From Actinomycetota bacterium (GTDB lineage: Bacteria > Actinomycetota > CADDZG01 > JAHWKV01): a stretch of DNA of 64,000 nucleotides. Numbering within the stretch: position 1 is the stretch's first letter; the number at the start of each line of letters is the position of its first letter. The stretch spans positions 7,252-71,251 of the forward strand of contig JBPCIX010000013.1 of the NCBI GenBank assembly GCA_051005875.1. The letters run 5' to 3'. Shown here piece by piece: positions 32,578 to 45,747 of the stretch. The position numbers were made by a program, and so were the translations under genes. The notes beneath the pieces are model-generated. The model searched no databases. It saw only the letters and a program-made list of their open reading frames with translations, and was not told where the DNA came from.

Positions 32578-33213
32578 CTGGTCTGGAATTCACTTGAGGA
32601 CGTTAGAAACGAGGCACTTGGCTGCGTTAAGTGTGGGCTGCACACGGGGCGGACTCAGGTTGTTTGGATTGATGGGAATGTTGATTCGGACCTTATGTTT
32701 ATCGGCGAGGCGCCTGGGTTTCACGAAGACCGACAAGGGCGGCCGTTTGTAGGCGCTGCGGGCAAGCTGCTCGACCAGATGTTGGCGTCGATCGGACTCG
32801 ATCGCACCCAGTGCACGATATGCAACGTTCTTAAGTGCCGGCCCCCCGGTAATCGAAATCCCTTACCCGTCGAGATCGAGACCTGCAACCCTTATTTGGA
32901 AGCTCAGATCAAATTCATCGACCCTCAGGTGATCGTCACCCTTGGGAACTTCGCCACTCGATTTATGCTCAAAAGCCAGGTCCCCATCTCGAGAGTGAGA
33001 GGGCAGAAATTCAAGCATGGCCGGGCTACAGTGATTCCCACATTTCATCCCGCGGCAGTCCTTCATGGGGGCGGAGCGGCCAAATCGCCTGCCATGGTCG
33101 CCATAAGGGCCGACTTCGGTCTCATCAGCGAAACGCTCGAATCCACAAGAAGCGCCGGGCAACCGGTCTTGGGAAAAGCCGAAGCGCCGATTGAGCAGGC
33201 TTCGCTCTTCTAA
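32578..33213 (+). CDS. Uracil-DNA glycosylase family 4 (Fe-S); probable CTG start
   Basis: GEAPG...E...[18 protein letters not shown]; the frame extends upstream of the ORF-track ATG to include CVKC...RTQVV; CTG follows GGAGG and an in-frame TAA. Confidence 0.92.
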
Positions 33214-33779
33214 TGTCAAACCAAAAGCTGGTCGTCGAAACCCATTCAGCCGGCGAAACCGCTCGGCTCGGAACGGCGCTCAGCCCAGTCCTCATACCTG
33301 GTGACGTCATCGTACTTTCGGGAGATCTTGGCGCGGGAAAGACTACTTTTACCCAAGGGCTGGCGGTTGGCCTCGGCATCACCGAGAACGTAACAAGCCC
33401 AACATTCCTATTGATGAAGGAGTACTTCGGGGGCCGTTACCCTTTGATGCATATGGATATTTACCGGCTGGAGCGGATCCAGGAGGTCATCGACCTGGGC
33501 TATGACGAGTTTCTTGACCCCGCCGACATTGTTGTCGTCGAATGGGGAGACATGGTGGAGCCACTATTGCCAAAAGACCACCTTCAAGTGATTTTGCGGC
33601 ATATCGATGACAACTCTCGCACCGTTGAGTTGGTCCCCAAAGGCGCCGACTGGCAGCCCCGGATGCAGACTGTCCGCATGCTTGTCAACGAGCTATTTTC
33701 CGCAGGCAGGAAGGCTGATCCCGGATACTTCGGTGACTTTGAGTTCGAAAACCTCTCCGGCCCCGAAGCCGCCAACTAG
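33213..33779 (+). CDS. tsaE: tRNA threonylcarbamoyladenosine biosynthesis ATPase
   Basis: [26 protein letters not shown]. Confidence 0.97.
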
Positions 33780-34471
33780 TGCTGGTACTTGGGATTGAAA
33801 CCTCGACCCCTTGGGCTTCCGTCACGATTGGATCTGAACAAGGCATTATCGGATCCTGCCTGGTGTCCAGAGGTGCCTCGCACGGCGAATTCATCCTTCC
33901 CGCGATTGAGTTCTTGATGACCGAAACCAACATTGGATATAGGAATCTTTCCGCCGTGGCCATCGGGCTCGGACCTGGCCTATTTACCGGAATGAGAATT
34001 GGAATCGCGACGGGCAAAACGCTGGCTCAGGCCCTTTCGGTTCCAATAGTAGGCGTCGGATCCCTCGACTTGCTTGCCTTCGACGTGAGGTATTCGAGCA
34101 AGCTGATTTGCCCCGTTATAGACGCGAAGCGCAAGGAGGTTTTCTTTGCTTTTTACCGCCAGGTGCCGGGCGGAATAGCGCGAATCAGCAAGGAGTACAT
34201 GGTTGGGTCCCCGGAAACGTTGGTGGCGGAGATTGAAAGCGCCGGAGAAGAGGTTCTTTTGGTCGGGAATGGGGCATTGCTATACCAAAACGAACTAATG
34301 GAGGCCGGCAGAGTGGAGTTTGGATCAATCGCAAATGCTTTCCCCGGCGCCACTTCATTGGTGGAGCTTGCCCTTCCCCGGCTGTTTCGAGAAGACTTCG
34401 ACCGGCTGTTTGACCTGGAGCCGCTTTACATGCGGCGTACAGATGCCAAAATCAATTGGGACAGATTATGA
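33779..34471 (+). CDS. tsaB: t6A biosynthesis protein TsaB
   Basis: LGIETST, GPGLFTGMRIG, IDAKRKEVF, PLYMR. Confidence 0.96.
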   Translation: MLVLGIETSTPWASVTIGSEQGIIGSCLVSRGASHGEFILPAIEFLMTETNIGYRNLSAVAIGLGPGLFTGMRIGIATGKTLAQALSVPIVGVGSLDLLAFDVRYSSKLICPVIDAKRKEVFFAFYRQVPGGIARISKEYMVGSPETLVAEIESAGEEVLLVGNGALLYQNELMEAGRVEFGSIANAFPGATSLVELALPRLFREDFDRLFDLEPLYMRRTDAKINWDRL

Positions 34472-35040
34472 GCGCTCTTGCCCACGCCCCTGATTTCGAT
34501 GCGAATGACATCGAGCTTGTACCAATGCGTCGCCGGCACGTTCGGCCGGTCATGCGAATTGAATCTCAGGTTTACGAGCGGCCATGGAGCGCCGCCTTGT
34601 TCCTTCAGGAGATCGCTCGCAGAGGGGACCGCTTTTACGTTGTAGCCCGGTATGAGGCGGCCGTGGTCGGATACGGGGGCATCATGTCGTCGGGCCTTGA
34701 AGCCCACATAACCACCATAGCCGTCGACCCCGTTTATCACGGTCGCCACATCGGGATGAAACTCATGCTCTGCCTGATGGATGCCGCAATCGAGCGCGGC
34801 GGGCGAACCGTCTCGCTGGAAGTTCGTAAATCAAATGATTCCGCGCAAAATATGTACGACATGTTTGGGTTCCAGCCGGTTGGTGTTCGCCGCGGCTACT
34901 ACGTTGAGACTGGGGAGGATGCGATCGTGATGTGGGTCGACGGAGTTCACACCTCGCGATATGCCGATCGACTGGACGACTTGCGGAGCCGCGTAGAAGG
35001 TGGGCGTCACGATCGCGAAAACGATGAGGACGACTCGTGA
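34468..35040 (+). CDS. rimI: Ribosomal protein S18 N-acetyltransferase (GNAT)
   Basis: AHITTIAVDP, LEVRKSN, RRGYY...EDAIVM; ATG at 34468 overlaps the tsaB stop. Confidence 0.93.
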   Translation: MSALAHAPDFDANDIELVPMRRRHVRPVMRIESQVYERPWSAALFLQEIARRGDRFYVVARYEAAVVGYGGIMSSGLEAHITTIAVDPVYHGRHIGMKLMLCLMDAAIERGGRTVSLEVRKSNDSAQNMYDMFGFQPVGVRRGYYVETGEDAIVMWVDGVHTSRYADRLDDLRSRVEGGRHDRENDEDDS

Positions 35041-36131
35041 GCGCCACCGAGGCCACTATCCTGGAACTTCCAGAAGTTGAAGTAAAAACGTCGCCCCTGC
35101 TGGAAACAATCGAGCCAGACTCGGAGCCTAAACTCATTCTTGGAATCGAAACCTCTTGCGATGAGACTGCCGTCGCCATTGTTCGGGGCGACCGCGAGGT
35201 CCTGTCGAACGTCATCTCGTCGTCGGCGCCGCTTCACGAAAAATACGGCGGGATCGTTCCCGATATAGCCTCGAGAGCTCACGTTCAGGCGATCAACCCG
35301 GCAATTGAAGAGGCATTGAGCCAGGCCGACCTCACCTTGTGGGACCTTTCGGCAATTGCGGTAACAAGCGGTCCGGGACTTATCGGGTGCCTGGTAGTCG
35401 GGGTGGCGGCAGCCAAGTCGTTAGCGTCGGTTCTCGAGGTGCCGTTGATCAGCGTGAACCATCTCGAGGCCCACATTTACGCTAACTTTCTCGAGAATCC
35501 AGACTTCGCTCCACCTGCCATCGGCCTGATCGTTTCAGGTGGCCACACTTTGCTTGTGAGGATGCACGACCACGGACTATACGAAATCATCGGACAAACC
35601 CTGGACGACGCGGCCGGCGAGGCATTCGACAAAATCTCTCGTTACCTTGGGTTGGGGTTTCCAGGTGGGCCGGCAATTGAGCAATCGGCCCTAAAAGGCG
35701 ATCCCAACGCCATCAGGTTCCCAAGAGCAATGAGCGAGGACGGCTACAACTTTTCGTTCTCCGGCCCGAAGACTGCGGTGTTGAGCTACATAAACAAGTT
35801 GAAGGCAGACGGCAAAACCCCGGATATTCCCGATCTATGCGCGTCATTCCAGGAAGCAATCGTCGAAGTGCAGGTAACGAAAACCATCCGGGCCGCGCGC
35901 AACTTCGGAATTAAAACGGTGTTCATTTCAGGAGGAGTAGCCGCCAACCGAAGATTGCGAGAACTACTCCAGGCTGAGTGCACGAAGATAGGCGCAACAA
36001 TGTTCCACCCATCCCCCGTTTACTGCACAGACAACGCAGCAATGGTGGCCTGCTGCGGAGCCCATCGCTCTAAAAGAGGAATAAGAAGCGCAATGGACAT
36101 AACAGCAGACCCAAACCTCCCCCTAGCCTAA
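35037..36131 (+). CDS. tsaD: tRNA N6-threonylcarbamoyltransferase
   Basis: LGIETSCDET, HLEAH, VSGGHT, DDAAGEAFDK, TDNAAM. Confidence 0.98.
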   Translation: MSATEATILELPEVEVKTSPLLETIEPDSEPKLILGIETSCDETAVAIVRGDREVLSNVISSSAPLHEKYGGIVPDIASRAHVQAINPAIEEALSQADLTLWDLSAIAVTSGPGLIGCLVVGVAAAKSLASVLEVPLISVNHLEAHIYANFLENPDFAPPAIGLIVSGGHTLLVRMHDHGLYEIIGQTLDDAAGEAFDKISRYLGLGFPGGPAIEQSALKGDPNAIRFPRAMSEDGYNFSFSGPKTAVLSYINKLKADGKTPDIPDLCASFQEAIVEVQVTKTIRAARNFGIKTVFISGGVAANRRLRELLQAECTKIGATMFHPSPVYCTDNAAMVACCGAHRSKRGIRSAMDITADPNLPLA

Positions 36132-38274: not shown

Positions 38275-39441
38275 TTGGAAGTCGGAATAGGGATTGGAAA
38301 GGCAGCCCGTAAGGCATACGGCTTTGACGACATCGCCATCGTGCCTTCCAGGCGAACGAGGGACCCCGACGACGTAGATATCTCTTGGGAAGTCGATGCC
38401 TACCGCTTCGACCTGCCGGTTCTTGCGGCCGCCATGGACGCGGTCGTATCGCCGGCAACAGCCGGTCAGATAGGCGGCCTGGGGGGCCTGGCGGTGTTGA
38501 ACCTTGAAGGCTTGCAAACACGCTATGCCGACCCAGATTCCGTTCTCGCAGAGATTGCAGAGTTGCCCGAGGACAAGGCCACGGCAAGGATGCAAGAGGT
38601 CTACAGCGAGCCCATTAAGCCAGAGCTGATCGGGCAGCGGATTCAGGAGATAAAGGCCTTCGGAGTCACTGCCGCGGCAAGTCTCACGCCGCAAAAGGTC
38701 GAGGAATATTCGAAGATCGTCCTGGAGGCCGAGCTGGACATTTTTGTCATCCAGGGCACCGTGGTCTCGGCGGAGCATGTATCCACCCAGCTGGAACCAC
38801 TCAACCTAAAACGCTTCATCGCCAATTTTGATCTCCCTGTAATCGTCGGCGGCTCGGCTTCTTACCAGCCTGTTCTGCACTTGATGCGAACCGGGGCAAT
38901 CGGAGTTCTCGTTGGAGTAGGCCCCGGCGCCGCTTGCACCTCGCGCCAGGTTCTCGGGATTGGAGTCCCACAGGCAACTGCTATTGCCGATGCTGCGGCG
39001 GCGCGGATGCGGCATCTCGATGAAACCGGCCGTTACGTTCACGTGATCGCCGACGGAGGAATGCGAACCGGCGGCGACATCGCCAAAGCAATCGTTTGCG
39101 GCGCCGACGCGGTGATGATCGGCTCTCCGTTGGCCCGCGCCCACGAAGCGCCGGGCCGCGGGTACCACTGGGGAATGGCGACCTTCCATGCGGCTTTACC
39201 TCGGGGCGTTAGGGTCGCTTCACAACCGCTGGGTACCTTGAAGGAGATCCTGCTTGGCCCGACCAGCGTCAACGATGGGACCGTGAATCTGTTTGGGGCC
39301 CTAAAGAATTCAATGGCAACCTGCGGCTATCAGTCGGTCAAGGACTTCCAAAAAGCCGAAGTCGTGATAGCCCCTTCGATCAAGACCGAAGGAAAGCACC
39401 TACAACAACAGCAAGGTCTCGGGCAAGGCAGCAGGGGTTAG
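38275..39441 (+). CDS. guaB3: GuaB3-family IMP dehydrogenase-related protein
   Basis: [35 protein letters not shown] (catalytic Cys), IADGG; no CBS pair. Confidence 0.92.
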
Positions 39442-39448
39442 GGCACTT

Positions 39449-40216
39449 CTAACTTCCGACTGAAACCCTAAGGGCGCCCCATTCTGTGAGGCCCTCGAGA
39501 GTGTCGCGCAGCTCTGCTTCATCGAGACCCGAGGTCTCAACCATCTCGGGGAAACTCCTTTGACCGTCGGCTAGTTCAAGCAGAGCCTCCATCGCAGCCG
39601 TACTGTGGGCCACGATCACTCTTGCGTGAGGCGAGCGCGCAACGAGCAATCGAACGGGAGTCTGGGGCGCCATCGGGATTTGCGCCGGGGACTTCAAAAT
39701 CTCAGCCAGCACAACCGTTATGTCGTATTGCAAATCGAGCAGCCGAGTACCTTGCGCTAGCTCAAAAACCTCCCCCGCAGCGTTGGCCGCTTCGGCCGTG
39801 TCTCGCCAAACACGGGGGCCGGACTCAGCGATCATCATTGCCTGCTCGTAGTTGAGCAAATCATCGATGTAGGGGATTCGAGACTTCGCCTGGGTAGTCC
39901 CCACGTATTCCACGACCAACTCTGAAACCTGCTCCGCGCTATCCCGGCTGCCAAGAGTGAGCCTCGAGAGCAAATCGTGAAAGCCGGGACTGGCAAGGAT
40001 CGCCTCGGGGCGGCGGGCTGTTGCGGACGCTAACGCTAAAGAGTACTTAAAGAAGTGAACTATCCGCTCATAGTAGAAATGGCGAGCAAGGAAGCGAGCG
40101 AACTTTTCAACCCTTGCGGGTTCGGCTAAATTGCGGCTTAGCCACTCCGATGAGGTCCGGAATTTTGCGTCGGCAAGCGCTGTTATGACCAGATCTTGCA
40201 GATCACGATCGCTCAC
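39449..40216 (-). CDS. Putative MNIO partner protein with C-terminal winged-helix/RRE-like segment
   Basis: GTGA overlap with the DUF692 gene; DLLNYE motif; C-terminal LLELADGQRSFPEM...LEGLTEWGAL. Confidence 0.6.
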   Translation of the reverse strand: MSDRDLQDLVITALADAKFRTSSEWLSRNLAEPARVEKFARFLARHFYYERIVHFFKYSLALASATARRPEAILASPGFHDLLSRLTLGSRDSAEQVSELVVEYVGTTQAKSRIPYIDDLLNYEQAMMIAESGPRVWRDTAEAANAAGEVFELAQGTRLLDLQYDITVVLAEILKSPAQIPMAPQTPVRLLVARSPHARVIVAHSTAAMEALLELADGQRSFPEMVETSGLDEAELRDTLEGLTEWGALRVSVGS

Positions 40217-41025
40217 AGAGTGGCGCGGATGCGCTCCACCGTGTTGAAGATGGAGTCCGCCGTCAAAGCCGGCGAGAACGCATCAAACGTGACCGCTCTG
40301 GCCTTGGGGCAGCGGGCCAAAGCGTGCTTCATGAACTGAAGCATTTCGTCATCGGGCTCGGCCGGCGCGATCCACGGCCCTTCGAGATCTTCGTCTTCTT
40401 CCACGCCGGCGACATGAATTTCCCAAACGTGGTCGAGGGGAAACTGCTCCAGCCATTCCTCGGCGGGGATCTTTTTGTAGTGGGCCTGGAGCCAAAGGTG
40501 GGGCAAGTCCAGCAAGAACCCCACCCCGGTGGCCTGAAAAAAGCGCTTCAACCAAACGGGCTCGGGCATCTGGCTGGTTTTTACGTCGAAAAACCCGGGA
40601 ATGTTTTCCATCACCAAAGGCTGGTCTAGGCGCGATGCCAATTCTTTGGCATTAGCGACAAATCGACCCAGGAACTCCTCCGTATACAAAGGCGGGAACA
40701 CGTAGTTCAAGCTATGAACACCATCGGCCGTGTGCAGGCATTGAAAATGCTCCGCGACCCAGGGGCTGCGATACATCTCGGCCAAAGAACGCGATCTTTC
40801 AATTGATCGCTCATCAAAGGGCTCCGACAATTGTCCGAGGTAGTCATGCAATAGCAAGGTGAATTTGTCTCGGATTGGCTCGAAGTACGGGTCGTCGCCA
40901 CGGGGCGGGTCGGCCATAGCCAGGTGATCTATCTGAACCGGGGCGTTCAGAAGCTCCAACCCAAGGTGGGGGTTGTAGAACCCCCCAACCATGATCGAGC
41001 CGGGTTGTTGGGCGGCCTTGGTCAT
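40213..41025 (-). CDS. DUF692 family multinuclear non-heme iron oxidase (MNIO; MbnB/TglH/ChrH-like), divergent
   Basis: Ordered motifs LLH, PWVAEH, LVMENIP, FLLDLPH, EIHVAG; 270 aa from the ATG at 41025 (ATGA overlap with the AKR stop). Confidence 0.82.
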   Translation of the reverse strand: MTKAAQQPGSIMVGGFYNPHLGLELLNAPVQIDHLAMADPPRGDDPYFEPIRDKFTLLLHDYLGQLSEPFDERSIERSRSLAEMYRSPWVAEHFQCLHTADGVHSLNYVFPPLYTEEFLGRFVANAKELASRLDQPLVMENIPGFFDVKTSQMPEPVWLKRFFQATGVGFLLDLPHLWLQAHYKKIPAEEWLEQFPLDHVWEIHVAGVEEDEDLEGPWIAPAEPDDEMLQFMKHALARCPKARAVTFDAFSPALTADSIFNTVERIRATL

Positions 41026-42110
41026 GGTGTCACCATTCCTTCGGCGGCCAGTTGATCCACGAATTGTCTGACCTGCGCCCCCATCAGGTGCGTGTCCTCG
41101 GCCTCCGACCATTCGGCGGCTATCGAATCGTAGGAGGTGCGCCCGTCGAGGCGGTCGACGATGAACTGCTCGCGCCCACCCCATTCGGCGGCGGCCTCGC
41201 GAGCAGCTTGCGTAGCGGCGGCCGGTTTGAACACCTCGGCAACCGCCTCATTCACGGCTGCGATTTCTTCGCCCTCCAAGGGTTTGTTTTTGGCCTCCAG
41301 GTTTTCCTCCAGCTGTTTTGGGGTTCGCGCCCCTGCCAAAACCACGCTAACACCGGGCTGGTTTAAAGCCCAGCCAATTGCGAGTGCACTGACGGTGCGG
41401 CCCCCCTTCGCCGCGATTTGCCTCAGCCGATCGAGTACGGCTACCCGGCGGGCCAATTCGGGGCCCTTGAACCACCAGATCCCGTGGCGGTGGTCGTCGG
41501 GAGCAAGATCGGACACCGATTCCTGAGAGAAGGTGTCGGTCAACACACCGGATGCAAGGGACCGGTAGGCAAGGAACGAGAGCTTGTGCTTCCGGCAGAG
41601 GGGGGTCTCCTTTTGCTCCACCTCGCGGTCGAACAGGTTGTAAGCCGCCTGGTAGGTGCTTAGCGGCGCAAATTCGAGAGCCCTGGAAAGTTGCTTGCCG
41701 GTTGCGTTGCAAAGACCGATGGCGAGAGCCTTGCCTTCTTCTTTTAGCCTGGAGAGTTCCTGGAGTGAGCGCTCGAAATTATCCCCGACTTCGTGCAGCT
41801 GCAAAAGGTCCACATACTCGGTATCAAGCTTGCGAAGTGACACTTCGAGGCTTGCCCGCGGATCGTCTCGGGGACCGACCTTGGTTGCCAGAACAATCTT
41901 GGCCCGCTGCTGCTTGAGCACCCGGCCCAACAATTCCTCGGACTCGCCGTAGGTAGGAGCCGTATCGAAAACAACAACGCCGCGCTCAGCGGCGAGTTGG
42001 ACCGTCTTTTCGCGCGTCGTCCAATCTGCGCCCGGACCCCAGTCCTCGCCGCCAACTCCCCAAGCGCCGAACCCAATCTGGGCCGGACAGGACTCCCAAG
42101 TGAACGCCAT
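41022..42110 (-). CDS. Aldo/keto reductase with C-terminal PqqD/RRE-like extension
   Basis: GFGAW, FDTAPTYG, ATKVG, LLQLH (D/Y/K/H tetrad), GARTPKQLEEN; extra ~60-aa tail IVDRLDGRTSYDSIA...VRQFVDQLAAEGMV. Confidence 0.88.
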   Translation of the reverse strand: MAFTWESCPAQIGFGAWGVGGEDWGPGADWTTREKTVQLAAERGVVVFDTAPTYGESEELLGRVLKQQRAKIVLATKVGPRDDPRASLEVSLRKLDTEYVDLLQLHEVGDNFERSLQELSRLKEEGKALAIGLCNATGKQLSRALEFAPLSTYQAAYNLFDREVEQKETPLCRKHKLSFLAYRSLASGVLTDTFSQESVSDLAPDDHRHGIWWFKGPELARRVAVLDRLRQIAAKGGRTVSALAIGWALNQPGVSVVLAGARTPKQLEENLEAKNKPLEGEEIAAVNEAVAEVFKPAAATQAAREAAAEWGGREQFIVDRLDGRTSYDSIAAEWSEAEDTHLMGAQVRQFVDQLAAEGMVTP

Positions 42111-42150
42111 TTCTACCGACTCGGCGTTGGCATGAATTTGGTCATGTTTT

Positions 42151-42543
42151 CTAAACCTTAATCACCTGAACGAAGGACCCGTCCAGTCCGTCGTAATCGC
42201 CATCCTGAGCAACCACGGGAACTCCCAGCGCCATAGCCGTCGCAGCAATCCAGGAATCGTTTACAGGCATCCGTCGGTTGTTGTCTCGCAGCCAGAGCCG
42301 GAGTTTCGCCCACGACTCGGACACTGCTTCATCCACAGGCGTTGGATCCAATCTCAATGCCTCGATTAGAGTCGCCAACCGGCGCTCACGGAGCTCGACG
42401 GTTTCGGCGGCGAGAACACCTGCGCGCAATTCTCCGATCGTTATAGCCGACACCGCAATTTCGTCCGGAAGCGCGTCGGCGCGAAGGGGGCGTCCCGTTT
42501 CCCCAGCAATGAAGACCGATGTATCGGCCAGGCCGCGACTCAA
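42151..42543 (-). CDS. vapC: VapC-type PIN domain toxin
   Basis: LADTSVFIA, ITIGEL, NDSWIAATA, QDGDY. Confidence 0.92.
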   Translation of the reverse strand: MSRGLADTSVFIAGETGRPLRADALPDEIAVSAITIGELRAGVLAAETVELRERRLATLIEALRLDPTPVDEAVSESWAKLRLWLRDNNRRMPVNDSWIAATAMALGVPVVAQDGDYDGLDGSFVQVIKV

Positions 42544-42791
42544 AAGTCCAAATCGTCGGTCGTATCAGGGGCGAGTTTGCGGAGTTCGTTTCCAAGGGCC
42601 GTGTCGGCCTGTTTGGTTCCAATGCGGTGAACAAACTCGGCGCGGCTGATCCACCGAGGGCGGCGTCCAAGCGGACTCAGCAATGCCACAGGCCTGCCAT
42701 CGACCCTAATGGTGATATTTTCGCCGGCCTCTGCCCTGCTTAAAAGTGCGCGGGTGTTGTTGCGCAAATCTCGTGAAGCCGCCTCTCCCAT
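42540..42791 (-). CDS. Phd/YefM-family antitoxin
   Basis: SRDLRNNTRALLSRAEAGENITIRVDGRPVALL; TTGA overlap with vapC; ATG at 42791. Confidence 0.88.
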   Translation of the reverse strand: MGEAASRDLRNNTRALLSRAEAGENITIRVDGRPVALLSPLGRRPRWISRAEFVHRIGTKQADTALGNELRKLAPDTTDDLDF

Positions 42792-42792
42792 T

Positions 42793-42823
42793 ACACAACT
42801 GTAGCATGTCGCTACAGTTGTGT
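42793..42823. promoter_or_regulatory. Palindromic operator overlapping the extended -10 of the TA pair
   Basis: ACACAACTGTAGC-atgtc-GCTACAGTTGTGT, perfect 13-bp arms; the minus strand reads TGcTACAGT-N6-ATG. Confidence 0.75.
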
Positions 42824-42851
42824 GCAATTTCGTGAGTTCCCGGAAAGGGAA

Positions 42852-42877
42852 GAGCCCGAACCTAAAGGTTCGGGCTC
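42852..42877 (-). terminator. Stem-loop downstream of the repeat peptide gene
   Basis: GAGCCCGAACC-4 nt-GGTTCGGGCTC, followed on the minus strand by TTCCCTTT (weak U tract). Confidence 0.65.
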
Positions 42878-42895
42878 CTGCCCATCCTTACTTCT

Positions 42896-43078
42896 CTAGG
42901 CGTGACACGTGGGCTGCAATTCACTTGCCTCGACCACTGATGGCCTATGACATGTGGGCTGCAATTCATCGGCCTCAACAATCTGGGGCCGGTGACACGT
43001 GGGGTGCAGCTGGCTTGCCTCTACGAGACGGGGCCGGTGACACCCTGGTACGAGTTGCTCACTTTCGACGATCCTCAT
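42896..43078 (-). CDS. Putative RiPP precursor peptide: four ~15-aa repeats each containing Cys-His
   Basis: MRIVESEQLVPGCHRP/RLVEASQLHPTCHRP/QIVEADELQPTCHRP/SVVEASELQPTCHA; strong SD AAGGAGGTGA; repeats differ at synonymous positions (CAC/CAT, CGG/AGG, CCC/CCA, ACG/ACA). Confidence 0.85.
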   Translation of the reverse strand: MRIVESEQLVPGCHRPRLVEASQLHPTCHRPQIVEADELQPTCHRPSVVEASELQPTCHA

Positions 43079-43199
43079 CCAATCACCTCCTTTAAACTGA
43101 TGGAAGTTAAGCTGTAACCCTACAACAAACCCAAAACTACGTTGCCCGCGAATAGGCTCGGGCGGACGGTTCGTCGCATTCGCTTTCGAGGTCTATTCT

Positions 43200-44165
43200 T
43201 TGCCCATTCCAACCGTTCCAAACATTCAAACGACGACGCTGTTGACCGAGGAAACACTCGCGGAACAATTCCTTGCCGGTATCGCCCGGCGGAGCCTGGA
43301 CGAGAAGTTCTTCTATTGGTTCCCATTGTCGGTTCGCGCATGGCTGGAGCTTTGCAGCGATGGCGACTATCGAAACTTTGTGCGCTCTCGGTCGCTTATC
43401 GAAAGCTCCGCAAAGGAATTGGCTGCCAAAATCCCTCCCAACCAAATCGATGTCTTCAGCATAGGGTGCGGCCAAGGCGATAAGGACGGAATACTGCTAC
43501 AGGCGCTTCGCGAAAGTGTGCAGACGGTAAATTATCTTCCGACCGATGCAAGCCAGTCCCTTCTGGAAATCGCCTGCGCTGGAGCTCTTAAGGCAGGATT
43601 TGCGGTCCGCGGGTTCAAGGCCGATTTCACCGACCCGGCTCACTTGCAGGCCATCGCTCACGAGGGGGACTCGTCCGAACGCCTTTTCATGATGATCGGC
43701 AACACCATGGGAGCGGCGGATCCCTTGTCGACCGCAAAGGATCTGCGCCGGATGCTTCGGCCGGGAGACCTGCTGCTGGTTGACGGCGAGATCTATTCGC
43801 CGGGAACCATCGCCGGCTACGACAACCCAATTAACCGGCGCTTTGCCTGGGCACCCTTATATTCGGTCGGAATTCGGGACGATCAGGGCGAAGTCGCCTT
43901 CCGCGATGAGATCGACGACCGCCTGCCGGGACTTCATCTTGTATCCAAGCATTTCTCGGCTGCGCAGCCTGTGGTTGCCCTGACCGGTGGGAAATCCATG
44001 AAGATCGAAGCAGGGCAACGTTTGGAAATGAACCATTCCTACAAATATTCCCTCGAGGCCTTCGACGCAGTTCTGGATCAGGCCGGCCTTGAGCCTAAAT
44101 GGTCGGCCCAAAGCGAAGACGGCAAGTTCGTAATGACGTTGGCCGAGGCCCGTAACCCTAATTAG
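43200..44165 (+). CDS. EgtD-like (Methyltransf_33) SAM-dependent methyltransferase, atypical
   Basis: [43 protein letters not shown] match the EgtD-family layout. Confidence 0.8.
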
Positions 44166-44184
44166 TGGGGTTATCCTGAGGCAA

Positions 44185-45747
44185 GTGGAACTCAATGAGG
44201 AATTTGACCGAATACTTGTAGTTGATTTTGGTGCCCAGTATTCGCGACTTATCGCCCGTCGGGTTCGTGAGTGCCACGTCTTCTCAGAGATTGTCCCCCA
44301 CTCGATAACACCCGAGGAAGCCAAGCAGCTTCGCCCAAAGGGGATCATTTTCTCGGGGGGTCCAAAAAGCGTCCACCAGGAAGGCGCCCCCAGGGCGGAT
44401 CCGGAACTTTTCAACCTTGGCGTACCGGTTTTGGGAATCTGCTACGGCCACCAGCTGATGGCTTCGAGTCTCGGCGGCAAGGTGGCGAAGGGCTCGTCAG
44501 GCGAGTTCGGCCGCACAAGCCTGACCGCTGAACAGGGGCTCTTGTTCAACGACCTGGGTCTTGCTCAGGACGTTTGGATGAGCCATACCGACGCGGTAAC
44601 TGAGGCTCCTGAGGGGTTTCGCACTGTAGCGAAGACAGAGTCTTCCCCGGTTGCGGCTATGGAGGACATTCAGCGGGGCCTCTACGGTGTGCAGTTTCAT
44701 CCTGAGGTTGCCCACACGCCGTGCGGAGTCGATTTGCTCAAGAACTTCCTCTACAACGCCTGCGATTGCACGCCGTCATGGACCGCAGCGGGAGTGATCG
44801 AGACGGCGGTTGAGAAGATTCGGCGGCAGGTTGGTGACGCCTCGGTGATTTGCGGGCTCTCCGGAGGCGTTGACTCCGCCGTCGCGGCGGCGCTCGTCCA
44901 TAAAGCCATCGGACACCGGCTGACCTGCATCTTCGTGGACCACGGAATGATGAGGGCAGGCGAAGCCGAAGAAGTGGTCGAGGCCTTTCAGCGACACCTG
45001 AAAATTGATCTCATTCATTCGAAGTCCCAGGATCGGTTCATCGACAAGCTGGCCGGCGTAGACGACCCGGAGCAAAAGCGGAAAATTATCGGCACCGAGT
45101 TCATCCGTGTCTTCGAAGAAATCGCATCGCAGGTTGCGAGCGAGGGATCCGAGCCCCTTCGTTATTTGGTTCAAGGAACCCTGTACCCAGATGTGATCGA
45201 ATCCGGTGGAATTGGGAAAGTCGCGGCGGTAATCAAAAGTCACCACAATGTCGGCGGACTGCCCGACGATATGAAGCTCGAGCTCGTGGAGCCCTTGAGG
45301 GATCTTTTCAAGGATGAGGTTCGGCGTGTCGGCGAAGAATTGGGCCTTCCTGAGGACATAGTGTGGCGCCAGCCTTTCCCGGGGCCCGGCCTCGCCGTAA
45401 GAATCATCGGCGAGGTGACCCGAGAGCGCCTGGAGCTTGTTCGGGCCGCAGATGCCATTGTGGTCGAGGAAATCAAAAGGGCCGGGCTCTACAGACAAAT
45501 TTGGCAAACCTTCGCAGTCTTGCTCCCCGTCCGCAGTGTCGGCGTGATGGGGGATGAGAGAACCTACGGCCACCCTGTGATCGTTAGAGCAGTCACATCT
45601 GAAGACGCCATGACCGCCGATTGGGCCAAACTCGACCACGGTCTGCTGGAAAGAATCTCAAGCCGAATCATCGCCGAGGTTCCCGGCATTAACCGGGTCG
45701 CCTACGACATCTCTTCGAAGCCGCCGGCGACCATCGAGTGGGAATAG
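44185..45747 (+). CDS. guaA: GMP synthase (glutamine-hydrolysing)
   Basis: [43 protein letters not shown]. Confidence 0.99.

Follow-up and report, generated by a model that had tools for sequence, protein, structure and literature searches.

The nearest curated models for an oxidase and partner pair of the kind described here come from the aminopyruvatide pathway, in which the precursor ApyA is encoded together with the MNIO (oxidase that depends on multinuclear non-heme iron) ApyH, the protein ApyI, which bears a recognition element (RRE) for RiPPs (peptides made by the ribosome and modified after translation), the likewise RRE-bearing ApyD and the methyltransferase ApyS. According to the accessible text of PMC10635010, ApyH makes an alpha-keto acid that is then modified by the downstream ApyS, and the pair ApyI and ApyD sets a precedent for MNIO clusters that encode more than one protein with an RRE. 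The same text describes all known RREs as three helices plus a three-stranded sheet to which the precursor is bound as a fourth strand; there, and in the accessible portion of PMC12710340, the beta strands are taken to be what defines an RRE and to form the face on which the leader pairs. In pearlin-type pathways (TglA/TglHI, 3-thiaglutamate), an MNIO and its partner act on the terminal Cys of a ribosomal scaffold to yield a small thiol-bearing amino-acid derivative (accessible part of PMC9016710). Here we analyze a stretch of 64,000 nucleotides from an Actinomycetota bacterium (contig JBPCIX010000013.1, positions 7,252 to 71,251; hereafter the window), which contains a gene for an aldo-keto reductase (AKR) with a C-terminal tail related to PqqD, next to the genes for an MNIO, an MNIO partner and a repetitive small peptide. 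Because of its PqqD-related tail and its constant presence in one peptide-modifying cassette, this reductase is probably a dedicated tailoring enzyme.

Reductases that tailor RiPPs include the short-chain dehydrogenase ElxO (epilancin 15X) and the dehydroalanine reductases of the LanJ type. Like the role proposed below, they perform NAD(P)H- or flavin-dependent late reductions on a ribosomal peptide, but they belong to other enzyme superfamilies. To our knowledge, they include no AKR and no enzyme with a PqqD-like domain.

Results and discussion

The reductase gene lies at 41022..42110 on the minus strand (stop codon TGA at 41022–41024) and was assigned from the list of open reading frames (ORFs) and the Pfam family Aldo_ket_red. 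Its 362-residue product contains both strings, REQFIVDRLDGRTSYDSIAAEW and QVRQFVDQLAAEGMV, that a preliminary description of the locus had quoted. Aldo_ket_red (PF00248; gathering cut-off 24 bits) matched residues 12–290 (41241..42077, minus strand) with an E value of 3.8e-55 and 187.4 bits, covering profile positions 2–290 of 291, and a sequence search identified AKR11 enzymes as the closest solved relatives of the barrel, namely 1pz1_A (3.1e-42, query residues 10–289) and 1pyf. The AlphaFold (AF2) model of the whole protein reached a predicted local distance difference test score (pLDDT) of 91.7 and a predicted template modelling score (pTM) of 0.90. Foldseek aligned it to 1pz1_A with an E value of 9.9e-23, 33% identity and template modelling (TM) scores of 0.72/0.78, which supports an (alpha/beta)8 barrel, and these domain identities are established. 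The intact AKR tetrad claimed beforehand was borne out: D49 (codon 41964–41966), Y54 (41949–41951), K77 (41880–41882) and H106 (41793–41795), all encoded on the minus strand, line up with the D/Y/K/H of 1pz1. None of them varies among 30 family members (alignment A1), and we take these positions to be the catalytic tetrad. From the invariant tetrad and the fold, the enzyme is predicted to be a catalytically intact AKR11-like reductase, and it is probably an NAD(P)H-dependent carbonyl reductase. The identity to the solved AKR11 members, compared by Foldseek, is 29–33%; AKR nomenclature asks for more than 40% within one family. With the described AKR11 enzymes (B. subtilis YhdN/GSP69, 1pz1; IolS, 1pyf; G. 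oxydans AKR11B4, 3n2t) the window protein has the barrel, the tetrad and the barrel length in common. However, the solved enzymes stop about 20–40 residues past the aligned part in a loop with no PqqD-like domain and are stand-alone proteins, whereas the window reductase continues into a tail and sits in a peptide-modification cassette.

All AKR matches end at residues 289–292, leaving a tail of 69 residues (294–362; 41025..41231, minus strand) that corresponds to the extension past the usual AKR end noted earlier. It was delimited by AF2 models of the full-length protein and the isolated tail as well as by conservation, and comprises a short strand, helix a0 (301–310), three helices (312–320, 327–337 and 344–356) that form the three-helix bundle of a winged helix-turn-helix, and a short terminal strand. 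The tail-only model (pLDDT 91.1) showed the same elements as the whole-protein model, in which the conserved part of the tail scored a pLDDT of 95–97. In alignment A1, the mean frequency of the most common residue was 0.786 over residues 310–358, compared with 0.738 in the barrel and 0.594 in the linker (294–309), and W310, R313, E314, I317, L321, D322, G323, A331, W334, A345, Q346 and D352 were invariant across the 30 sequences. Judged by this alignment, the tail is under selection as strong as that on the barrel and is not of low complexity. Of 8000 candidates scored in a word-indexed search, 495 proteins reached E ≤ 0.001. Among the matches listed, the protein itself aside, 117 of 119 covered at least 90% of the query at 51–69% identity and were 356–389 residues long; given this coverage and length, these 117 relatives carry the tail.

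A segment of the tail (residues 315–360; 41031..41168, minus strand), consisting of three helices with an LDG turn, was related to PqqD by hhalign, the Pfam PqqD profile and the structural aligner VIA-align. The profile (PF05402) matched the window tail alone with an E value of 5.6e-4 and 20.6 bits over profile positions 21–67 of 67. Across the family it matched 52 of 55 tails at E ≤ 1, each weakly (best 1.7e-5), and the next families matched 11 of 55. For a comparison of profiles, we assembled 29 genuine PqqD domains (A5), all taken from genomes within the same phylum and excluding one locus whose genome is unpublished. Aligned to this profile with hhalign, the tail profile (A2) gave a probability of 92.6% and an E value of 4.5e-7, with tail positions 22–67 falling on PqqD columns 30–77 of 77. 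When the tail model was compared with 48,161 chains by VIA-align, PqqD itself (3g2b_A) ranked first (Z 7.8, root-mean-square deviation 1.9 over 55 residues, model residues 12–69 on chain residues 36–92), and the list also contained the lasso B1 protein 6jx3 (6.9), TbiB1 (6.1), PqqD 5sxy (5.5), TigE (5.3), PbtF (4.9) and LynD (4.8). LynD, TruD, PqqD, PbtF and lasso B1 were likewise among the weak Foldseek rows for the tail model. For the ESM Atlas model of residues 294–362, the neighbours following its own AKR cluster were clusters of the PqqD type (TM by query 0.71–0.81). A PqqD hidden Markov model (HMM) built for this analysis placed the AKR frame above all other six-frame ORFs of the window (956 in total), though only at an E value of 0.034, and among 16,766 frames from 139 cluster loci 52 of its 53 matches at E ≤ 1 were AKR tails, the remaining one being a partner protein. 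The tail profile gave three matches among the sequences of solved structures (E 0.5–0.7; uteroglobin fusions and a methyltransferase), none of them meaningful.

On the combined results of profile, hhalign, fold and HMM, the tail is homologous to helices alpha1–alpha3 of PqqD and has lost the sheet; this helix homology is established at the level of sequence profiles and models. With PqqD and the RREs (PF05402; 3g2b, 5sxy, lasso B1 6jx3, TbiB1 5v1u, LynD 4v1t) the tail shares the three helices, the h-h-x-x-L-D-G turn and a C-terminal amphipathic helix ending in G-L-V, and both are fused to or encoded beside RiPP enzymes, near a small precursor gene. They differ at the N-terminus, which in PqqD and the RREs is a three-stranded sheet and in the tail one helix (a0) and a two-residue strand, and in the fusion partner, which for the tail is an AKR, a fusion not found in the literature searched. 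The likeness to the helical half of PqqD that had first been noticed by eye is thus supported by the hhalign, VIA-align and ESM Atlas results. The broader label of a PqqD/RRE-like domain stands for the three helices and not for the sheet: because the three beta strands are absent in sequence and model, the tail fails the strict definition of an RRE. Given the same absence, the tail could just as well bind in another way or have a protein as its partner.

The tail is confined to this AKR clade. When 1.84 billion representatives were searched exhaustively by phmmer with the tail as query, 15 proteins matched, 12 of which lie in, or resemble pieces of, the window AKR family (11 by sequence; P0129, 374 residues, by length and match position). 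Nine of the 11 inspected sequences were preceded by AKR residues or frame-shifted AKR DNA; the other two, P0126 (67 residues) and P0132 (99 residues), had no AKR in front and may be fragments or chimeric calls. The last three matches were repeat proteins with many short stretches, namely P0135 and P0136, which are unrelated, and P0122 (5144 residues, 18 short stretches). This single-sequence search reached the tail on no other AKR clade, nor did it reach any genuine stand-alone PqqD. Neither the tail nor any cassette gene was present in 21 loci with distantly related AKRs (25–39% identical). A fold unlike PqqD or winged helices, or a wide spread among AKRs outside RiPP clusters, either of which would have spoken against the preliminary description, was found in none of these comparisons. 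In a tree of 30 tailed barrels and 17 tail-less AKRs, the tailed group formed one side of a branch with support 59/86; the outgroups are very remote (branch 4.1) and the tree adds little. In one Gemmatimonadales locus (L037:4955–5605) a frameshift falls within the tail and the frame continues for 217 unrelated residues; this copy is either damaged or wrongly assembled. Two genomes of the window's class encode a membrane protein of 535–589 residues with an HExxH motif (L088:154–1914, minus strand, and L086) whose N-terminal PqqD-like segment (LDGxRTYDDIA) matches the tail profile weakly (E 1e-4 to 4e-4); it is possibly a peptide-directed membrane protease.

The position of the tail raises the question of whether it serves the reductase itself. 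AKRs line their substrate pocket with the C-terminal loop, and here the tail occupies the place of this loop; the pTM of 0.90 for the whole model further suggests a fixed packing of the tail on the barrel. It could thus be a structural part of the enzyme, either a pocket lid or an oligomerisation element, and the substrate a small molecule released from the peptide. The neighbours of the cassette in Gemmatimonadales, small-molecule transporters (a quaternary-amine ATP-binding cassette (ABC) importer and EamA) with no peptidase or peptide exporter among the conserved genes, would fit such a substrate. A lid, however, would not need the PqqD helices and the LDG turn retrieved at 92.6% profile probability, and the tail is on no other AKR. 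We therefore consider a purely structural tail quite unlikely.

To assess how constantly the tailed reductase is accompanied by peptide-modifying genes, two sets of loci were compared. The first, anchored on the AKR, came from a scan of one genome per species and held 80 loci, of which 59 were close (AKR 41–62% identical; mostly Gemmatimonadales, a few Actinomycetota) and the other 21 were the distant ones mentioned above. By tblastn, the 59 close loci contained the tail in 55, the MNIO in 54, the partner in 49, the peptide in 58 and the methyltransferase in 57 cases; every missing gene was at a locus end, and both loci lacking the methyltransferase were cut at the locus start. The second set, anchored on the MNIO, consisted of the best 80 of 510 relatives from a metagenome scan (69–75% identical), with counts taken over loci with enough flank. 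Here the tail was found just upstream of the MNIO in 74/74 evaluable loci, and the AKR in 61/61, the peptide in 56/57, the methyltransferase in 49/49 and the partner in 50/50. The gene order is an EgtD-like methyltransferase followed, in divergent orientation, by the repeat peptide (hhExxELxPxCH)n, the AKR, the MNIO and the partner. Among loci with enough flank, the tailed AKR clade occurs only in this one cassette, as gene content in both sets indicates, and the strict co-occurrence is established. The membership in an MNIO pathway proposed earlier is supported by these data, the MNIO gene being above its Pfam cut-off and the cassette being conserved from either anchor.

The cassette itself is distributed patchily. 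Among 113 genomes of the window's class, 2 contained it, a count that depends in part on the unpublished G105. In the Gemmatimonadales-type order to which locus L003 belongs, 301 genomes were sampled and 15 contained it (one being the unpublished G455). This pattern bears on the simplest alternative, in which the reductase is a general detoxifying AKR that came to lie beside MNIO genes by chance. The closest named relatives, general stress or methylglyoxal-type reductases, are what such an enzyme would have, but the co-occurrence is strict from both the AKR and the MNIO side, the start and stop codons of the two genes overlap, and the patchy occurrence of the reductase tracks that of the cassette. 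A chance neighbour is, in our judgement, hardly credible.

Within the window, the MNIO (DUF692) is encoded at 40213..41025 on the minus strand (ATG at 41023–41025; Pfam MbnB_TglH_ChrH, PF05114, E 5.5e-25, 88.5 bits, cut-off 25). Among the NCBIfam models it scored 88.9 bits with ApyH and 83.2 bits with BufB, both far below the cut-offs (ApyH 400). The partner, a protein of 255 residues, follows at 39449..40216 (minus strand, GTG start) and gave weak NCBIfam matches to ApyI (6.4e-5, 22.4 bits, cut-off 200) and HvfC (1e-4, 22.3 bits, cut-off 142); where its gene lies, the overlap with the MNIO gene and its conservation agree with a partner of this kind. The AKR stop overlaps the MNIO start as ATGA, and the MNIO stop overlaps the partner start as GTGA. 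From these overlaps AKR, MNIO and partner are read as translationally coupled, which is established for the window. The C-terminus of the partner (207–250) aligned weakly to PqqD (hhalign 19%, E 1.2e-3), making the tail the more PqqD-like of the two (92.6% vs 19%). An origin of the tail as a recent duplicate of this partner domain was considered and rejected (hhalign 4%, E 0.01).

The putative precursor, a peptide of 60 residues encoded at 42896..43078 (minus strand), consists of four hhExxxLxP(G/T)CH units with RP between them, and an AAGGAGG motif (43086–43092) lies 7 nt upstream of its ATG. Homologous precursors of 30–60 residues were found by regular expression in 56 of 59 genome loci, with E5, L9, P11, C13, H14, E50, E53, L54, P56, C58 and H59 invariant. 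Gemmatimonadales carry near-identical two-unit 30-mers (MQIVETQELVPSCHRPEIVETSELxPTCH plus one residue), and three or four units occur in Actinomycetota and in one divergent locus. Directly 3′ of the precursor stop codon, a hairpin (42842..42887, minus strand) with a 13-bp G+C-rich stem is followed by UUCCCUUUCC; its predicted RNA fold has −33.9 kcal/mol (z −4.1), and 0 of 200 shuffles were as stable. It could be an attenuator that sets the ratio of precursor to enzyme transcripts. On the opposite strand, the divergent gene at 43200..44165 (plus strand) encodes an EgtD/EasF-like S-adenosylmethionine (SAM)-dependent methyltransferase (Methyltransf_33, Pfam E 3.9e-23; EgtD structures in the Protein Data Bank at about 1e-6). 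Between precursor and AKR, Pfam and NCBIfam assigned a Phd-like antitoxin (42540–42827) and a PIN/VapC toxin (42151–42543), both on the minus strand. This pair (42151..42827) is absent from 80/80 genome and 80/80 metagenome loci, and the precursor–AKR spacer amounts to 786 nt in the window, while its median over 118 loci is 47 nt. By this comparison the pair is an insertion and not part of the pathway. It parts the precursor from the enzymes and may influence expression of the operon.

Compared with the aminopyruvatide pathway, the window cassette likewise has overlapping MNIO and partner genes, more than one recognition domain and a methyltransferase that would act after the MNIO (for aminopyruvatide, accessible text of PMC10635010). 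Its MNIO and partner, however, fall far below the Apy cut-offs (ApyH 88.9 vs 400 bits; ApyI 22.4 vs 200 bits), its precursor is a Cys–His repeat whereas the aminopyruvatide precursor ends in YLYD, and it encodes an EgtD-like methyltransferase and an AKR but, unlike aminopyruvatide, no P450 or radical SAM enzyme. ApyHI is reported to be inactive in E. coli.

Taking tail, cassette and coupling together, we lean slightly towards reading the protein as a carbonyl reductase that uses NAD(P)H, is dedicated to an undescribed pathway of MNIO-type peptide modification and is recruited to its substrate by the tail. The precursor would be the short peptide of 2–4 units, each made of a recognition-like stretch, hhExxEL, and a Pro-x-Cys-His core. 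The MNIO and its partner would oxidise the core, most likely at Cys; the reductase would then reduce the carbonyl, an aldehyde or alpha-keto group, arising from this oxidation, and the EgtD-like enzyme would finish the product by adding methyl groups. The tail, a PqqD-derived three-helix module without its sheet, would bring the reductase to the substrate, either by holding the recognition stretch of a repeat or by docking on the complex of MNIO, partner and peptide. We infer peptide binding, this order of steps and the chemical group that is reduced from the gene set and the domains described above. A complex prediction of the reductase (A1) with the 60-residue peptide (A3) gave a score of 0.00 (mark 0.32), with the controls not folded, and is uninformative on binding.

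Several observations weigh against this reading. The PqqD profile stays below its gathering cut-off (20.6 bits with the tail alone and 15.5 with the whole protein, vs 23.4). In hhalign, PqqD columns 1–29, the strand region, are left unmatched by the tail, and the tail model has helix a0 (301–310) and a two-residue strand where PqqD has its three-stranded sheet. In VIA-align, generic winged helices score 6–7.4, near the 7.8 of 3g2b, and Z values below 8 may reflect an arrangement common among small helical domains; a Foldseek search of the Protein Data Bank with the tail model gave no match at E ≤ 1e-3. One paper on RREs counts helical bundles without an intact domain as false positives. The MNIO is far under every curated MNIO equivalog, with no carbonyl-forming reaction known for its subfamily, and peptide recognition could already fall to a strand-plus-helix domain at the C-terminus of the partner.

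The last point, in particular, opens the way for a different role of the tail. It may be a protein–protein docking module that fixes the reductase to the MNIO–partner complex, where the reactive oxidised intermediate would be handed over, with no contact of the tail to the recognition stretch. The leader-binding sheet is absent from the tail, the coupled translation of AKR, MNIO and partner is what would be expected of subunits in a fixed ratio, and the strand-plus-helix domain of the partner, with its weak PqqD match, may already recognise the peptide. PqqD-type domains, on the other hand, are known as peptide binders (general knowledge; accessible text of PMC10635010), and tight coupling is not universal, for in some loci a gene of 1.0–1.2 kb parts the AKR from the MNIO or the MNIO from the partner. 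We regard mere docking as unlikely, though as a serious competitor to recruitment of the reductase to its peptide.

A further alternative concerns the product rather than the tail. The peptide could be a scaffold on which a small sulfur- and histidine-derived quaternary-amine metabolite, similar to ergothioneine or ovothiol, is made instead of a peptide product. Each repeat unit would then supply one Cys–His pair, the MNIO would perform the C–S chemistry, the tailed reductase, held on the recognition stretch by its reduced PqqD module, would reduce an aldehyde or keto group on the former Cys, and the EgtD-like enzyme would N-methylate the histidine part. Pearlin logic offers a model for such a route, yet the cassette has no peptide-aminoacyl-tRNA ligase and no protease gene, and its Cys is genetically encoded and repeated. 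Hints in this direction are the invariant C–H dyad that ends every unit, the EgtD-family methyltransferase as a core gene, the importer and EamA genes in Gemmatimonadales, DinB_2/mycothiol-transferase-like and ArsC-like thiol genes (18–19 of 59 loci), and the finding that the 89%-complete genome holds no EgtB-type domain. We nevertheless rate this route as very unlikely. If it were true, the biosynthesis of thiol-histidine betaines would follow a logic not described before, and the reductase would be the first AKR to act on a ribosomal peptide. The canonical ergothioneine pathway was also considered and rejected: the 1.8-Mb, 89%-complete genome G000 contains one MNIO and one Methyltransf_33 gene, both in the cassette, and no FGE-sulfatase/EgtB domain was found in it.

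Outside the core, the flanks vary between lineages. In Gemmatimonadales, an ABC importer of the OpuCC/EgtUC family for quaternary amines is encoded 3′ of the methyltransferase on the same strand (L003:2702–5860 and about 50 other loci); its ATPase, permease and binding-protein genes occur in 50–51 of the 59 loci and an EamA-type exporter in 34, and none of these is in the window. The substrate-binding protein of L003 matches OpuBC/OpuCC and EgtUC alike and is not specific. An LssY_C protein is inserted between MNIO and partner in 18 of 59 loci (L003:8847–12199 and relatives), and downstream of the cassette ArsC-like (19 of 59), DUF4760 (16) and DinB_2/mycothiol-transferase-like genes (18) were found. 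Individual loci have an alpha/beta-hydrolase between AKR and MNIO in L030 and L046, a secreted propeller-like protein in L011 and a membrane protein in L016. In the window, the cassette is flanked by housekeeping genes (33213–36131, 38275–45747), with a TsaE/TsaB/RimI/TsaD-like block, GroES, an M23 peptidase and a GuaB-like gene on one side and GMP synthase on the other; these flank names come from reading the translations, the Pfam check having covered the cassette genes. In L006, the closest relative, the GuaB-like neighbour is also present, at 83% identity.

Conclusions

The literature searched described neither an AKR in an MNIO pathway nor a fusion of an AKR to a recognition element, survey figures and most supplements being outside that search. 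The cassette was likewise not found in it, and the combinations of Gemmatimonad with multinuclear non-heme iron and of thiohistidine with ribosomally synthesized returned nothing. The main text of the MNIO landscape paper PMC12452194, as distinct from its figures and supplements, which were outside the search, has no occurrence of "aldo", "Gemmatimon" or "methyltransferase". For PMC12710340, PF00248 is absent from one supplementary file of 12 kB, and its fusion tables might list an AKR fusion. As far as this literature extends, both the cassette and an AKR fused to a PqqD-like module are undescribed.

New pathways to peptide natural products are found chiefly by way of recognition domains fused to tailoring enzymes, and this tail would escape annotation that relies on Pfam cut-offs. 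The cassette to which it points is frequent in metagenomes from soil, one scan having found 510 MNIO relatives, and its short repeated precursor and five-gene core should make heterologous tests easy. Should the remnant of three helices still recruit its enzyme, the notion of a recognition element would become wider. If the proposed role is true, aldo-keto reductases would join the enzymes known to work on ribosomal peptides.

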